64,000 bases of DNA from Octopus vulgaris (taxonomy: Eukaryota): the NCBI GenBank assembly GCA_951406725.2, contig OX597842.1, forward strand, positions 6,448,001 through 6,512,000, read 5' to 3'. The stretch's first letter is position 1, and each line of letters begins with the position of its first letter. Made by a program: the position numbers and the translations under genes. The notes under the pieces were generated by a model. The model ran no database searches and was not told the DNA's origin. It saw only the letters and a list, made by a program, of their open reading frames with translations. Shown here piece by piece: positions 2,209 to 59,955 of this stretch.

Positions 2209-2852
2209 TATATATATATATAGAGAGATAGATAGATGTTCTGCCCTTACCTTCGAAACATGCATTGAGTCGAACCAGGGGCAGCTGATGAAGGGGAATA
2301 TTCCTTGTATTGTTTGTCTTGTACTCTGTTTTTTCGTTGTTAAAAAAGTTTGTTTCCTTGTTTATTTTTATGTTTTTGCTTCTCGTTGTGTTCTACGTTT
2401 ATTTGTGGTGTCCTGTACTCACATATATATATATATATACATGTATATATACATATAGATGTAGGTATGTACATATATGTATGTATGTATGCATATGTTT
2501 TATTTGTTAAATTGTTATTATATGATTGAACGCCTCGCGTCACTTTCTTATTTCTTATTAATAATTATGATGCGCACTCTTTAACTCTTTACTTGACCAT
2601 TCCTTCCTACCTGTCTGTCTTCCTCTCTACCTGACTCTCTCCTTCTTATTTTTCACCCTTTCTGGTTTCTTTTCTTCTCTAGGGTATCTACGAGATACCA
2701 CCATGCTGAAAATAGCAGCCATGATCTGACTCTAAAACCACCTTAATTGTCCATATATCAACACGGAGAGTAAACATTTTGAACTGGCCATGATGCATAC
2801 GTGCATATATATGTAGGTATACGTTCGTATATGTAAGTATTCGTATGTTGTG

Positions 2853-2902
<50 letters not shown>

Positions 2903-2932
2903 CGTGTGTATTTATGTTCCTCTTCTGTGTGT

Positions 2933-2991
2933 ATTCTACTGACGAGGCAAAGCATTCCTAAATGCAAAGTCAGAAATCCGGGATCTAGAAT
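2933..2991 (+). ncRNA. Type I hammerhead ribozyme-like motif
   Basis: Stem I attcta/tagaat, core CUGACGA, stem II ggc/gtc plus gcatt/aatgc, one extra A, GAAA, short stem III tc/ga, cleavage triplet AUC. Confidence 0.7.
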
Positions 2992-3277
2992 TATCCAGTA
3001 ATTTTTTACTAGTTTCATCTTGTCTCTTTGTTTTCTCTCCCTGTTGATATATGGACAATTAAGGTGGTCTTAGAGTCAGATCATGGCTGCTATTTTCAAC
3101 ATGGTGGTGTCTCGTAGATACCTTAATTTATAATTTTATTAACTATTACTTTTGAAGATTATTTTTTCCATGCTGACCACTTGATAAAATCGTTATTTTA
3201 TTTTTAAATTAATGATCTTATCCTTATTTATATATACATACATACATACATGCATACATATATATATATATATATAT

Positions 3278-17050: not shown

Positions 17051-18242
17051 GTGTGGTTAATAATCAGAAGTTAGTTCCCAACTCCATGGCCCCGAACTCA
17101 ACGCATCTGCGTAGCACCTTGGGCAAGTTTTTTTTCTACTGTACTCTCGGGGCAATCAAAGCGTTGCGAGCGCATTTAGTAGAAAGAAACTGAAAGAAGC
17201 CCGTCGTATGTGTTTTTGCGTGTGTTTGTCCCCCACCGTCGCCTGAAAACTGGTGTTGGTGTATTTACGTCCTCGAAATCTTGTGGTTCAGCAGAAGACC
17301 CGATGTAATAAGTTTCTGGCTTAAAAGACAATAAGTTCTAGAGTTGATTCGTTTCAAGGCGGTGCCCCAGAATGACTAATGACTAAAAGAAGCGAAAGTT
17401 GTGCCAAGATTATATATACACTCACCTTTATATGTAAACATTCATGCTAAATTAATAAAGTATATATATGGGTATATATTATTATATACGTACATATACT
17501 CGTACATGAATACGTACATTCGTACGTTAGTAGGCAAATATATTCGCTTGAAAAGTATGTATTTAATATGTTGTGTGTGTCTAAACACATCTGTTCAGAG
17601 TAAAAATTAGTGTTTTATTTCCATCAAAAGATTGAAGTGAATATTGACGGGATTATAGTATAGAGTCAGATTTTATTGGTAATTTAAAATAGTTGTTCAC
17701 CCAGCGAGTCTACGAAGTTACTGTCAATGAAATTTTCACACAAACATATTTCGTTGCTGTTATGCAAAAGTGTCGTAAGTCCAAAACTTTGCTTTTTTCA
17801 GACAACGAAAAAATAGTTTCACCATTCCATAGCAAAACCGTTCTACTACACTTTCACAATTTTCGGTATCTTGGCATTTGAAGCAGCTGGAGATACGATT
17901 CTTTGACCAAAAGAACTGGCTATTGCAAGCAAAAATAAATATTGACAAAAAAAGAAAAAAAAAACGCATTTGGCCAAATTTGGACTTACGATAGTTTAAC
18001 ATAATAGCAACGGTTTGTATTTTGGTCGTCAGTCTGTTATTCTCTAGTTTCGCCTCTGTTCGGAGGCTCGTCAGGTAAGTTATGACGAGGTTTTAAAGTA
18101 CTCATCTCTGTTATAATGTTCGTTCCCCTTTCTTCCAATATTTTTCTTTTATGTTTAATTGTTTACCTGTTTAAGTCATTGGACCACAGCCATGCCAGGG
18201 CACGGCGGCCTTGAAGTGTTTACTAGAACCAGTACGTTTTTT

Positions 18243-18962: not shown

Positions 18963-19060
18963 GGTAAAAACGGTAAGATAACAAAAGAAAGAAAGAGACC
19001 TCAATATTATGTAAATAGAGGAATTTATCTGTAAATGTAATGTGTGACAATTATTCGGTA

Positions 19061-19128
19061 GCCAAGATAAAACTGAGTTTCGGATGCCGAGGTGGAAATC
19101 CACATTACCATCTCTTCAGTTATCCGGC
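19061..19128 (-). ncRNA. Minimal type I hammerhead ribozyme-like motif
   Basis: Minus strand reads gccggataa CUGAAGA gatg...catc c GAAA c tca g UU ttatcttggc. Stem I is about 9 bp, stem II is gatg/catc, and helix III is vestigial. Confidence 0.65.
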
Positions 19129-19856
19129 CATCGGAAAAAACCGAAGAGATTTCCACCTCGGCATCCGAAACTCAGAGTTTTATCTTGGCTACCAAATAAT
19201 TGTCACATATTATATTTACAGATATATATATACGCTCAATTAAAATAGTCTGTTGAGATGTTTTGGAAGAATAACATGTTAATAACCAAAGATATGTCTT
19301 CTCTACTTTTTTTACTCCTCTGAGATTTTGCGCCACAAAATATTTTAATCATTGGAATTTAATTCATTTGAGCAATATCGAAACAGCTGTAAGGTAACAT
19401 GTTGAATTTTTGCAGTTAGTGAATTATATTTACACTACTTCTCCCCTTTCTGGATTTTAATTTGAACATTTCTAAACAAAGTTTTATAATTAAACCTGTT
19501 ACTTTAGAGATATTACTATTCACAACAAAATAATACTTAAGGAACCAGTTGTTCATTGGATGTTTTCTATCCTTTAATATATATTCTTTTATTTGTTTCA
19601 GTCACTTGACTGCAGGCCATGCTAGAGCACCACCTTAATGGCTATCAAGTGATGGTGGGTGGAGGGACAAACACATACATAAATAAATAAATATATATGT
19701 GTGTGTGTGTGTGTGTGTGGTGGACTTCTTTCAGTTTCCGACTTTCAAATCCAGTCATAAAGCTTTGGCTGGCCTGAGGCTATAGTAGAAGACACTTGCC
19801 CAAGGTGCCACACAGTAGTTAGGAAACATAATTCTTACCACTCAGCTATGCTAGCA

Positions 19857-20157: not shown

Positions 20158-21612
20158 TTAATAATAATAATAATAAACATTGTATACAGTGCTCAGGTGC
20201 ACTACAACTCATCTAAAGTATATATATAATCAGGTGTAGTTTCGACGGATTTCGGGAAGCATGAGGGCCTTAAAGGATGCATGTCATGGCAGTCAACAAC
20301 TGACGCAGGCAGTTTATTCCATGCTTCAGCAACTCTGAGCGTGAAGAAATGTTTCCGAAAGTCATGGGAGCTGTGTTGTTTTCTGATTTTGTAGGCATGT
20401 CCACGTGTGTTAGACACATGGAGATCAAAAAGGTGTTCAGTGTTGTTATTGGTGAGGTGGTTGACAACTTTGTGGGCGTTTACCAAGTCCGTCGCCAGAC
20501 GCCAGAGCTTCAGTGAATCCATGCCCAGGGAAAGAAGGCGCTCAGAATATGGTAGGTGTCTGATGGAGGGTATGCGTTTGGTTGCACGTCTCTGAACAGA
20601 TTCCAGGAGGTGAATGTTCTGAGCAAGATAGGGGTTCCAAACTGATGATGCGAATTCCAAGTGTGGTCGTACCATAGCTGTATACAGTTTTAAATAGATG
20701 GCTGGAGAGCGGCTAACAAAAGTCTTGCTGAGTGATGCCAAGACACCCTCGGCCTTCTTGACAATTTTAGAGATATGCTTTGTCCAATGCAAATCACTGC
20801 TGACAGTGATGCCTAGGTCACGCTCGCAAGCGGATTTCTTGATATCAGTGTTGTGGAGGGAGTATGTGGACGCAGGGTTTTTCTCCCAAAATGCATGGTG
20901 GTACACTTGTCCGCAGCCAGTTTCAGTTGCCAGTCTGTGATCCATTGCTGCATTGTGTCCAGGTCTGATTGCAGGAAAGAGCTGTAGACAACAGGATCTG
21001 TCCTCTTGATTTCAAGGTACAGCTTGATGTCGTCTGCATATTTTAATACTGTGGCATTCTTTAAATTTGCATCTATGTCATTAATGTATGCCACAAACAA
21101 GAGGGGACCAAGGACAGATCCCTGTGGTACACCCGATGACATCTCATATGGTGTAGAATGCTGTCCTAGAACTGTGACTACCTCCTTTCGGTTGAGAATG
21201 AAGGATTTCAACCAGTTAAAAAGGTCATCCCTCACACCCATTGCAGAGAGTTTCACCATAAGCCTTTTGTGTGGCACAGAGTTGAAAGCCTTAGCAAAGT
21301 CAAGGTAAACAACATCCACCCATGAGCCACTGTCAGTGATCTGAGTAATGTCCTCAAGGAACTCGACAAGCTGATCACTGCAGCTGGAGTTAGGGACAAA
21401 TCCATATTGTGAGGGTCGGATGAGACTGTGTGAGCTCCAGAAGTTCCAAAGTGTTTCCCTGACACACGATTCCATCAGTTTTGCAATACAGCCAGTGAGA
21501 CTGACTGGGCGATAGTTGACAGGTGATGTGCGGTCGCCCTTTTTGAATAGAGGAATGACACTGGCAGTTTTCCACTGTTCCGGAGTAGCACCATTGTTGA
21601 GACAGTACTGGA
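20158..21612 (-). mobile_element. 5'-truncated CR1/L2-group LINE, frameshifted reverse transcriptase
   Basis: Motifs NYRPVSL, VYLDFAKAF, GVPQGSVLGPLLF, KYADD, ERDLG, RPHLE and TRGH spread over two frames, with a (TTA)n tail. Confidence 0.93.
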
Positions 21613-22329
21613 AGAAAATAGAGAGCTGGAATCTATTTTCATTGTGAGCAGGAATCTATTTTCTCCCTCTCCACCTCTGACCACAGTCCCTCATGGTCTA
21701 AATTCGTCCTCTCTTATCATACTTTAGCCACCACTCCTAAACACTTGTCATAAAACCACCTCTTTTAAGTACTACCCCCACCCACTTAGTCAAAGAGGAT
21801 TTCTCTTTTTCTTGTTCGTTTCCCATCTTGCAAGTTCCTTAGTCACCTCACTAGTACTGGTGGCATGAAAAAAAAAAACATCCACTACAAACTATAAAGT
21901 GGTTGGTTGTAGAAACCATGCCAAAAGTGACATCGGAGCTCAATACAGGCCTCAGGTTCTAGAAAACTTTCCAACCCATGCCAGCATGGAAAACAGACAT
22001 CGAATGATGATGACACATGCATACAAACAGACACACATGTAGACATATAGACATGTGCTGGGTTCAATCCCACTGCGTGGCACCCTGGGCAAGTGCTTTC
22101 TACTATAGCTTCAGTCTGACCAAAGCATTGAGAGGGGATTTGGTAGATGGAAACTGAAAGAAGCCCATCATATATGTGTGTGTATGGTGTGTTTGTATCA
22201 GTGTTTCTCACCCACCACTGCTTGACAACTGGTGTTGGTGTGTTTACATCCCTGTGACTTAGTGTTTGGCAAAAGATACTGATAGGATAAGTTCCAGGTT
22301 TAAAAATAAAATTAGAACAGGACCAAAAA

Positions 22330-31459: not shown

Positions 31460-31882
31460 GTATGTAGTCTTATGGGGAAATTTCAGATTCCAAGGAAACT
31501 GGTTCCAGTCCATATTGAAACAAGAATTAATTCATAGGAAGGCTTGTGGAAGATTTTAAAAAAAATTTTAATTACCACCATCAGGAGTGACTAATTGAAT
31601 GATTCAGAACCATTTTAATTCATCAGAAAGAGTAAAAGACTGAGAGATTAAATGATTGTCACTTGGGCAGAAAGTTGCCAACCAAAGGATCACTAATCTA
31701 TCTTTATTTAAGATAGTAGCATTTGTTTAAGATAATAGTATTGAAAGTAATTTAGCTGCTATTTCTTGTGGATTGAGTGACTGCATGGAGGCTCCTTTGG
31801 ATGCTGTTGTTGTCATTGTTATCATCTGTGTCACCTCTACATTAACTCAACCTATGTTTAAAAAGTCTGACTGCAGAGTGTA

Positions 31883-33982
31883 ATGTTTAATCAGAAACTG
31901 AGAAAATATACCCGATTCTTCGACCATTCTACGTATCTCATTGAATTTCCACTGTTGTTATTGTTGTTGCTACCTTTATCATTGTCAGCATCTCTGCCCA
32001 ATTGTACGTGTGTCCACACTTCCTGCAGCTGTATAACCAAAACTTATGTTCCTCAATTACCACAGAACATCACAAATATCATTTTTAAGGACTCTAATTT
32101 TAGACTGACTAAGGAATTCATGGTGAATATTTCAAGCTTGTCTCTTGTTTCGCTGAAGTTTGAAAACACATATATTTTCTCATCTAATAGTTCGGCTTTC
32201 GAAAATTTTACAACACTAAGTATTCTTGAATTCTTTGCGTGCTATTTTCAGCCCAGAATTTTGTACACAGCCTTAGCCAATGCTAAACAGCTGACCAAGT
32301 TATACATCATTTCAGCAAAAATTAAGGAGCTGTCTGAGTATTTCTTTGAGAATTTGCGTTGGACCCAGTTGACTCATTTGTCTTTGAAACGCTGTGGTTT
32401 TGATACTTTCAACGGCACACTGTTTTCAACTCTGAAATACTTGCGGGATTTAGACTTTTCTGAAAATTTTGTCAAGACTGCCATTTGGGGCATTAATCTG
32501 TCATTGAACGTCTTGAAAATTCCCCATAGCAGTGTTCAGCATTTGCCTGCTTTTGTTAGTTCCAGAGGTGAGTCTTACTATCCAAATTTAACACATTTGG
32601 AAATTGGTGTCGAAAGAATTCCTCATTTGAATGAGACTACATGCAAGGGACTGCAGCATCTGCAACATTTGTACATTTGGTGCGATCAATTAGAAAAGAT
32701 CAATTCCTTGTTCAACCCCATTCAAAATCTTCAAGCATTTCATCTTAGAGCTTCTTTATTTAGCCATCAGCCAAAACTTAGTATTACAAGTTCAAATTTT
32801 CGAAGCAAAACCCTTCAAAATCTAACTCTGGAAAATGTGCGTGTTTTTGCAGATAGCCAGATAGATTTGTTTCACTATTTTCCAAGCCTCATCAACCTTC
32901 AGTTAATTGGAACTGTTTTGTTAAGTAACCCTATATCAATCAACCAATCACTGGCCTTTCTTCCAAATTTAGTTACTTTGCAAATGAGTTTCTCCAATCT
33001 GAAAATCATTCCAAAAGTTATATGCAACATGGTTAACTTAACTTCTTTAAACTTGAAAGGCAACAGAATCCTGTGGTGGAATGATACCGATTGCTCCGTC
33101 ATGAAGAAACTAAACTTTCTCTCTTTCTCAGAAAACAGTATAAGTATTGTAGAGGATAAAACCTTTTCCCCCTTACTTATTGACAACAAAAATCTCAGAT
33201 GGGATTTGTCTGTTAACCCTTTCTTGTGTACCTGTGAAAATGCCTGGTTTAAGAGCTGGCTAGAAAAGAACCACCAACAGTTCTTATACTATCCTAAAGA
33301 CTTCAAATGTGAAACTCCAGCAGAACTGCGAGGTAAACGACTGTCAGATATCGACCTTGGAAACAACGTATGTGGAGTCAGTGTTATACCATCAGTTGGG
33401 ATCACTATTGGAATTGTGTTGGGCTCACTGATGTTTGTGTTTGTAGTGGTTGCCAGCATCTCATACTACAAGAGATGGGCTTTGCGCTACATCTGTTACT
33501 TGCTCAAGTCTCGCAAGAAGCAGGAAAGAAGCCAACAAGATGAGAAAAGTTATGTGTATGATGCATTCATCTGCTATCATAACAGTGACAGTAAATACCT
33601 TCTGGAAAAGCTGCAACCAAAACTAGAAGTGGAAAATAACTTTCGGTTGTGCATCCATGATCGAGATTTCATTCCAGGATGGGACATTGTTGATAATATT
33701 GTTGAAAGTATTGAGAAGAGTCACAAGATTGTGCTGCTTCTCTCAAACAACTTTGCCCTCAGCGAGTGGTGCCAGTTTGAATCGACAATGGCTCAGCAGC
33801 GACTCTTCGGTGAGAAAAAGAACACTTTGATCCCAATCCTTCTTGAACCAATCAAAATTAAAAATCAAACATCCCGGCTAACCATTCTCTTGAAGGAAAA
33901 GACCTACCTAGAATGGACAGATGACAAAAATGGTCAAAAGTTGTTTTGGGCACGTCTTTTAAATACCATGAGGGGTTCTTGA
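31883..33982 (+). CDS. TLR: Toll-like receptor, single-cysteine-cluster type, intronless ORF, 699 aa
   Basis: Hydrophobic signal segment (LLLLLLLPLSLSA), N-cap cysteines (CTCVHTSCSC) and multiple LxxLxLxxN repeats. LRRCT (NPFLCTCENAWF...FKCETP..LRGKRL...C), TM helix (GITIGIVLGSLMFVFVVVASISYY) and TIR motifs (YDAFICY, LCIHDRDFIPG, SEWCQFE, LFW) follow. ORF is uninterrupted. Confidence 0.96.
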   Translation: MFNQKLRKYTRFFDHSTYLIEFPLLLLLLLPLSLSASLPNCTCVHTSCSCITKTYVPQLPQNITNIIFKDSNFRLTKEFMVNISSLSLVSLKFENTYIFSSNSSAFENFTTLSILEFFACYFQPRILYTALANAKQLTKLYIISAKIKELSEYFFENLRWTQLTHLSLKRCGFDTFNGTLFSTLKYLRDLDFSENFVKTAIWGINLSLNVLKIPHSSVQHLPAFVSSRGESYYPNLTHLEIGVERIPHLNETTCKGLQHLQHLYIWCDQLEKINSLFNPIQNLQAFHLRASLFSHQPKLSITSSNFRSKTLQNLTLENVRVFADSQIDLFHYFPSLINLQLIGTVLLSNPISINQSLAFLPNLVTLQMSFSNLKIIPKVICNMVNLTSLNLKGNRILWWNDTDCSVMKKLNFLSFSENSISIVEDKTFSPLLIDNKNLRWDLSVNPFLCTCENAWFKSWLEKNHQQFLYYPKDFKCETPAELRGKRLSDIDLGNNVCGVSVIPSVGITIGIVLGSLMFVFVVVASISYYKRWALRYICYLLKSRKKQERSQQDEKSYVYDAFICYHNSDSKYLLEKLQPKLEVENNFRLCIHDRDFIPGWDIVDNIVESIEKSHKIVLLLSNNFALSEWCQFESTMAQQRLFGEKKNTLIPILLEPIKIKNQTSRLTILLKEKTYLEWTDDKNGQKLFWARLLNTMRGS

Positions 33983-58689: not shown

Positions 58690-59955
58690 CCATGTCTTCT
58701 TCTTCGGGTTTCATCCTCATTTAGTGACCAATACTTCCTTATGCAGCTGTTCTCGTCCATATACATCACATGGCCATACCAGCAAAGTCTTTTCTCTTGC
58801 ACATTACATCCAATGCCTCTTATACTCAGTTTTTCTCTCAACACATTTACACTTTGTCATATATCCACACTAATATTGTACATCCTGTGAAGCTTGCTAA
58901 CTTCATTTCTTTCAAGCCTTCATCTGCCCTCCACATTCACAACCCATGTTTCACTATCATGTAGTGTAGCTGTTTGTATACAGGCATCATGCAGTCTGCC
59001 TTTCACTCTGTGAGAGACGCTCTTTGTTACCAACAAAGTTAATAGCTCTCTAAACTTTTCCCAGCCAGTTCTTTTTCTAGCACACGGAGTTCTGTTTTTG
59101 ATTCGACGGTCATTCGGAATGCTCACAGCAGCCATATTCCTACCGCTCTATGTCACGCTGGTGAGACCCATCTTGGAGTACGAGATTCAAGCCTCTTCTC
59201 CTTATCTCCTCAAAGACATACATCATCTCGAAAGAGTCCAGAAGCTGGCTACCCGCATGGTTCTTGGTCTCAAGCATTTGTCTTATGAAGAAAGGCTGAA
59301 GACGCTCGACCTTTATTCTCTAGAAAAACGCTGCCGCCATGGTGATCTCATTCTTGCTCACAACATCATAAGCGGAAAGTGTAACCTCTCGAAAGAGCTG
59401 TTCTTCACTCCTGCTCCAGAGCGTCGGCTGTGGGGTCACTCCGAAAAGCTCTATCTGCGACGAATTCATCTCAATCGAAGGAGAGGGGCTTTCTCCGTCT
59501 GGGTTGCGGATCCGTGGAATAAGCTGTCGGACGAGATAGTGAAGATGCCGATGACCACTCAGTTCAAAGTCTCTCTTGACCAGAAATGGCCTGAACTCTT
59601 TGCATGAACACCCTCCCTGTACATAACTCCATGTCCCCCTACATGGCCTTGCTTTTTGCTTTTTGAGCCAAAAAATTAACTTAACTTAACTAGCTACTAT
59701 ATCCCCTCTACTGCTAATTAAGTCATCTAGGTGACAGAAACCATTTACTATCCTCCTGGGCATTTGAGGAAATCTATTTCCTGTGTGTTCTCAGTCTTTA
59801 TTGTTCCTGCACATTTGCCACACCTACAGACTACTTTCTCTGTTAGCCTTCCTGTAATTCCACTACTTCTCTTATGTGTCCATATCTTGCACTTGGTACA
59901 ACCGTATGGAATTTCTGACTTCACCTTTTTTAGATATCGAGCAGGGCCGTCTCCC
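58690..59955 (-). mobile_element. RTE-like LINE remnant interrupted by a CR1-like fragment
   Basis: GWEKFRELL...KGRL.DAC....LHDSETW; reading continues across the insertion. Confidence 0.75.
59082..59689 (+). mobile_element. CR1-like LINE 3' fragment
   Basis: LVRPILEY, LERVQKLATR and YEERLKTL motifs, a (TTAAC)n tail, and a ctagc duplication at 59077-59081 and 59690-59694. Confidence 0.9.

Follow-up and report, generated by a model that had tools for sequence, protein, structure and literature searches.

The DNA analyzed here, referred to as the window, is a stretch of 64,000 nucleotides from Octopus vulgaris (GenBank assembly GCA_951406725.2, contig OX597842.1, positions 6,448,001 to 6,512,000 of the forward strand). 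The window contains a Toll-like receptor gene, encoded on the forward strand by a single frame of 703 amino acids with leucine-rich repeats and a TIR domain (31871-33982), and broken LINE-type reverse-transcriptase frames at 20202-21655 on the reverse strand and 59014-59607 on the forward strand, as judged by eye from the translation. The feature under study is a type I hammerhead motif on the forward strand at 2933-2991, the positions of which were read from the sequence and the helices of which are backed by covariation. Helix I is formed by 2933-2938 and 2986-2991, and the core consists of CUGACGA (2939-2945) and GAAA (2973-2976). Helix II has an outer stem, GGC/GUC (2946-2948/2969-2971), followed by a 3x3 internal loop and an inner stem, GCAUU/AAUGC (2952-2956/2961-2965). 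Helix III, contained in AUCCGGGAU (2976-2984), is near-palindromic, and the cut is predicted 3' of C17 at position 2985. An extra A at position 2972, between C11.1 and G12, is invariant in the family described below. An earlier note had read a full core, three helices, an AUC triplet and this extra A here; all of them were located, and the letters that it quoted are present as given.

The type I consensus demands C3 U4 G5 A6 N7 G8 A9, G12 A13 A14, A15.1-U16.1 and H17, all of which are found in the window motif, and the core is intact in 84 of 114 copies. It also has a 10.1-11.1 pair that directly adjoins G12 with no insertion, but here the extra A intervenes. The motif departs from the consensus at this one point and is filed as a hammerhead variant, not as a canonical member. 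The Rfam model Hammerhead_1 aligns end to end at 2933-2991, skipping the long helix II, with 23.0 bits (E 7e-4, 96 nt searched), which falls below the gathering score of 34 bits. When 3 kb were searched, the motif was absent from the 93 Rfam matches, which were mostly miRNA matches driven by microsatellites and all under the cut-off. A relaxed descriptor that allows for an extra base matched the window twice, at 2939 on the forward strand and at 19119 on the reverse strand. Since the same descriptor matched three of 200 dinucleotide shuffles of the window, a single copy is only moderately beyond chance. By itself the motif is suggestive and not conclusive, and it is the family evidence that settles its reality.

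Two other hammerhead-like sequences were seen on the reverse strand of the window. The one at 19040-19130 is part of another repeat family of Penelope type (543 first-look candidates) and reads CUGAAGA-GAUG...CAUC-C-GAAA-CUCAGAG-UU, where helix II has one additional base, or a bulge, at its 3' foot; this family also has an inverted truncated arm (19148-19230) and a TA-flanked end. The other, at 18030-18085, reads CUGACGA-GCCUC-loop-GAGGC-GAAA and contains a canonical core and helix II; neither a helix III nor a cut site is clearly recognisable in this copy.

The motif at 2933-2991 is located in the direct arm of a two-armed insertion. This arm, on the forward strand at 2775-3234, is a 5'-truncated copy of a unit of ~495 bp that starts at about unit position 380 and continues through the hammerhead to a fixed point, here called B, at about unit position 302 (~3234), next to a TA/CATA tract. 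On its way it reads through a second, TA-rich fixed end point, A, at 3127-3145 on the forward strand. The inverted arm, which is also 5'-truncated, lies on the reverse strand at 2680-2776 and covers unit positions 97-192 toward point A (~205), without the final ~13 bases, at the junction with a neighbouring repeat. The two arms overlap by two bases (2775-2776), and 2680-2776 is the reverse complement of 3029-3125, with six differences in 97 positions. The inverted-repeat cassette described in the earlier note does exist as an inverted repeat, but it is this truncated arm of the element and no terminal repeat of fixed length. Among the other copies, the arm varies at its inner end and is constant at its outer end. 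Adjoining the inverted arm, and outside the element, is a piece of a different abundant repeat (2237-2680, forward strand; 2299 first-look candidates), with a unit of perhaps ~800 bp according to its spacing at two loci (L180 and L184). In this repeat, GAAAC...GUC and CUGAUGA stand in the order of a type II hammerhead, but no helix I could be formed, and it is possibly a broken or rearranged hammerhead.

A genome-wide search for copies, as suggested in the earlier note, gave 1428 first-look candidates with 2890-3030 as the query. The host assembly is 2.8 Gb and the copies of the family are dispersed in it. The exact pattern was found 279 times with the extra A and never without it, and a core-to-core pattern with a looser helix II gave 376 exact matches, compared to none for the reversed control. 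Counted by exact pattern, 376 copies is a minimum. The family was also seen in contigs from runs under four organism labels (two sets of four runs). At one locus (L031), two hammerheads are placed head-to-tail 495 bp apart, and this spacing defines the repeat unit. With the exact pattern, six tandem pairs with periods of 482-501 were identified, about two of which have both cores whole. Consecutive hammerhead units at L031/L266, L269 and L258 occur as pairs only, and no arrays longer than pairs were found by exact pattern. In an older subfamily, the unit measures 530 bp and shares 72% identity with the young one. The longest stop-free frames are 88 amino acids in the 495-bp unit and 70 in the 530-bp unit, also when these are read as circles, and the end of the unit joins head-to-tail to its own start, no coding frame being included. 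The 495- and 530-bp units are thus both short and non-coding with one type I hammerhead, as in non-LTR retrozymes, and the head-to-tail hammerhead copies of such elements are present here as pairs.

The extra A is present in all of the 114 young rows and in all 83 rows of a second alignment, which consists of 51 young copies chosen from the 114 to span the subgroups and 32 of 33 old copies, one old row with a deletion having been omitted. It is a family trait and not decay of the window copy. Private changes in the 114 young copies amount to 2.6% in the core and 3.0% in the stems, and such similar rates are as expected from post-insertion decay. Shared variants, which serve as tracers of the source lineages, are located at N7, in the loops, at a wobble, at CpG sites and at compensated pairs, with none at the 12 core positions and none at the extra A. 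Covariation among copies had been proposed as a test in the earlier note and is borne out by four helix pairs that have changed on both sides. In 78 distinct rows, the helix I pairs are 3/57 (UA in 47, CG in 25) and 5/55 (CG in 51, UA in 19), and those of the inner helix II are 21/32 (CG in 41, UA in 16, UG in 16) and 24/29 (UA in 35, AU in 27). Paired cells make up 94.4%, compared to 11-45% in slid controls. Variation in the outer helix II and helix III is on one side only, and the count of double-change pairs is not above that of shuffles (152/500). The covarying cells represent about four changes inherited by subfamilies, not 95 independent ones. Given four pair changes on both sides, and a core and extra A that are fixed between subfamilies ~72% identical, the hammerhead fold is likely to be under selection. 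The old subfamily and one young subgroup contain the perfect palindrome AUCCGGAU in helix III, and a palindromic helix III would allow for a double hammerhead.

The ends of the copies were examined with an anchor placed 3' of the motif, for which there were 294 exact matches; 98 from among the first 100 were taken and three were dropped for identical context, leaving 95. Of these, 46 end at unit 199-216 (point A) and 33 at unit 295-346 (point B), the latter range being blurred as the ruler ran into the TA tract. The flanks are TA-like by a simple pattern in 50 copies, and the 5' truncation points are scattered. Two diverging arms were found at 75 of 145 distinct places and a single arm at the other 70. 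Among the 57 two-armed places where both ends could be classified (18 loci were set aside for an end that fell in neither class), 47 have one A end and one B end, while 28.4 would be expected (p 3e-7). The window locus fits this pattern, with a direct arm that ends at B and an inverted arm that heads to A. Partial tandems, inverted 5'-truncated copies and (TA)n targets are traits of Penelope-like elements (PLEs), as described in PMC8557442, and the family has a variable 5' truncation, fixed 3' ends, an inverted 5'-truncated arm and a microsatellite target. Judged from the sequence, the one-A-one-B ends are a Penelope-type footprint, and from this anatomy we infer a mobiliser of the Penelope-like kind.

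Taken alone, the motif has no unusual stability (z -0.25), and its predicted lowest-energy fold keeps helix I but is not a hammerhead. This fold contains a predicted inactive helix, in which CUGAC (2939-2943) is paired with GUCAG (2969-2973) and the extra A at 2972 can pair with U4. The hammerhead was the lowest-energy fold in none of six natural monomers. For dimers, nearest-neighbour folding placed the double hammerhead 0-6.5 kcal/mol above the best fold, with a difference of 6.2 kcal/mol for the window copy and a tie for a C38 copy (-33.7 vs -33.7). The core-blocking helix is predicted to require U38 plus the extra A: 14 window-type copies have a probability of 0.92 for this lock, compared to 0.66 and 0.39 for other U38 groups and 0.00-0.02 for C38 copies. 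Since the C38 copies keep the A without the lock, the lock is unsupported as the sole reason for the extra A. When the extra A was removed in silico from window-type copies, the value for the foot of helix II rose from 0.03 to 0.68. In folds of whole circles, the lock was predicted in one of three (0.27) and had values of 0.01-0.02 in the other two; the TA tract exaggerates the z-score of the circle (-5), and the linear unit without the tract has a score of -3.0. A speculative and rather doubtful idea suggested by these models is that the extra A might be obligatory in an active class of hammerheads and serve there as a built-in switch, such that a lone monomer or circle would be zipped and protected through its pairing with U4, while pairing of the palindromic helix III in a fresh tandem would free the double hammerhead. 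According to PMC7229834, it is probably not self-pairing but something else that keeps animal retrozyme circles blocked, on which view the lock is a testable but weak lead.

Several explanations were considered for the element as a whole. The 97-bp inverted repeat that encloses the motif at the window locus might be taken as the terminal inverted repeats of a MITE-like DNA transposon around a hammerhead-like sequence that arose by chance. However, the inner end of the inverted arm is different in every copy, single-armed places are almost as common as two-armed ones, the unit is found in tandem and the helices covary. With arm lengths that vary where terminal inverted repeats would have a fixed length, such a transposon is ruled out for practical purposes and has a negligible probability. 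It is less far-fetched, but still quite improbable, that the unit is the pseudo-LTR of an autonomous PLE, of which the copies are truncated remains. The insertion anatomy is identical to that of PLEs, and GIY-YIG matches number at least 150 in the genome, many of them within 781-aa frames. Two intact ORFs of 781 and 775 amino acids encode an RT as well as a C-terminal GIY-YIG with a Cys-rich linker, a motif that would place them with the Neptune/Naiad type; each ends at a TA tract with a different hammerhead-like 3' motif. At one locus (L225, 2190-7614), a long TA tract with the intact 775-aa PLE inside it lies between two converging family copies that share private variants. However, this PLE is nested within the TA tract between the two copies and has its own, different 3' repeat, with a hammerhead-like motif that contains U-U at the helix II foot, and the locus was rejected as the autonomous parent. 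Furthermore, the unit closes on itself without an ORF, and a tblastn search with one PLE protein matched just two of 168 family loci, of which one is a fragment and the other is the nested insertion at L225. No RT/GIY-YIG ORF was found in the window, nor one joined to the unit in the 168 loci, and 30 GIY-YIG loci, of the at least 150 matches, shared nothing with the unit beyond AT-rich or repetitive sequence. The locus L231 (1245-3590) and related loci represent a young Penelope-like family with many intact 781-aa ORFs, the 3' repeat of which carries a hammerhead core with U3-A8 (UUGAUAA...GAAACAUG).

A third explanation accepts the same element and mobilisation but holds that the hammerhead is dead, having been disabled long ago by the extra A, and that some other function now maintains the fold, for instance its being recognised by the Penelope protein. 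No pile-up of 5' ends is seen at the cut site, where unit 49-58 has five of the 95 and the five 10-base bins that follow have 4, 6, 7, 3 and 6. A cleavage footprint had been suggested by five hand-picked cases and was lost in this anchor-based sample. As many as 90 of the 95 copies read across the cut site, so the template was circular or uncut; the absence of a pile-up fits either and leaves no footprint of cutting. In line with a dead hammerhead, the core of the U38 copies is predicted to be sequestered, most strongly in the 14 window-type copies, and two papers can be cited: the screen in PMC3088659 discarded matches with a mispair beside the core, and PLE hammerheads are described in PMC4209133 as cutting poorly even as dimers. 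Against this, the catalytic nucleotides and a valid UH site are preserved across subfamilies ~72% identical, and helix III stays palindromic, including a change from CCGG to CUAG in several old copies (for which double CpG decay is possible). Insertions at 9a and 13a and a U-U at the helix II foot are also tolerated naturally, as described in PMC4209133 and PMC3088659. We regard the loss of function as the less likely alternative, albeit one of some weight, and catalytic competence in the source lineage as reasonably probable; the hammerhead of the family is likely a variant self-cutting RNA. A point against cutting is that eight of nine predicted Xenopus retrozyme dimers are reported to show no cleavage in vitro (10.64898/2026.07.22.740005).

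The family has the sequence features of a metazoan non-LTR retrozyme and, as far as these can tell, works like one. Similar to those described in PMC7229834 and 10.64898/2026.07.22.740005, it is ORF-less and low in GC, with one type I hammerhead per monomer. It has tandem as well as monomeric copies, and its unit length falls within the 51-972 bp given by Li et al. (10.64898/2026.07.22.740005). Its weak palindromic helix III resembles the description of HHR_Amex1 from axolotl, and the same two papers propose that animal retrozymes are mobilised by PLEs. Unlike the metazoan retrozymes, the family has almost no arrays; its copies are partial tandems scattered in the genome and insertions with two arms, one of them inverted, and two fixed ends. 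It also contains the extra A between C11.1 and G12. The U38 copies have a predicted self-pairing block of the core, while in PMC7229834 the ribozyme is predicted to be left unpaired by such a block in most animal retrozyme circles. With the PLE pseudo-LTR hammerheads, as these are presented in PMC4209133, it shares the type I topology, the long helix II, the conserved G10.1-C11.1 and a small palindromic helix III suiting dimers. However, their unpaired base is located on the 5' side, between 9 and 10.1, rather than on the 3' side as in the family, and the family unit flanks no ORF. The 5' truncation, partial tandems, inverted arm and TA sites are all similar to the EN+ (TA)n-targeting PLEs of Neptune/Naiad type covered in PMC8557442, from which the family differs in that the unit is non-coding and lacks detectable homology to the repeats of the local PLEs in the 30 GIY-YIG loci above. 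Known natural variants, some of them active, include the single-base insertions A6a, U13a and 2a/2b in or next to the hammerhead core and a U10.1-U11.1 mismatch (PMC3088659). The insertion between 11.1 and G12 is not among the variants named in the text of PMC3088659 or PMC4209133, and literature searches turned up no report of it or of the family, although Luense et al. (RNA Biol 14:1499), on PLE hammerhead variants, might contain it. The family is judged to be a non-LTR retrozyme, the core variant of which is, provisionally, apparently new to the literature.

The earlier note had left the choice between a Penelope-like element and a retrozyme, and the results narrow this to an ORF-less retrozyme unit of ~495 bp with Penelope-type insertion anatomy. 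Its identity as a Penelope-mobilised retrozyme is very probable. With good but somewhat lower confidence, we explain the motif as the hammerhead of a dispersed, protein-less non-LTR retrozyme of ~495 bases, for which an autonomous PLE likely supplies the enzyme that copies it into TA microsatellites. Two hammerheads, joined via their palindromic helix III, would slowly cut transcripts longer than the unit at the AUC, and the extra A would bulge out at the helix II foot. The monomer would then be ligated into a circle, or the uncut multimer may be used instead. A Penelope RT/GIY-YIG protein would start at the two TA-rich points, priming from both strands of the cut DNA, and reverse transcription would read across the hammerhead cut site. 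The window locus is one partial copy, a two-armed insertion with a single hammerhead, and is probably inert alone.

Standard hammerhead descriptors need a helix II that abuts GAAA and would reject this motif, yet it has persisted, with paired changes, through a long history as a transposon. Should it cut, hammerheads in animals are undercounted, and the core tolerates an insertion beside the general base G12. The two fixed ends provide genomic evidence of Penelope mobilisation. The three subfamilies may serve as natural constructs for the question, raised in PMC7229834, of how retrozyme circles avoid being cut again, and the switch, if true, would be a self-pairing answer to why animal retrozyme circles stay uncut.
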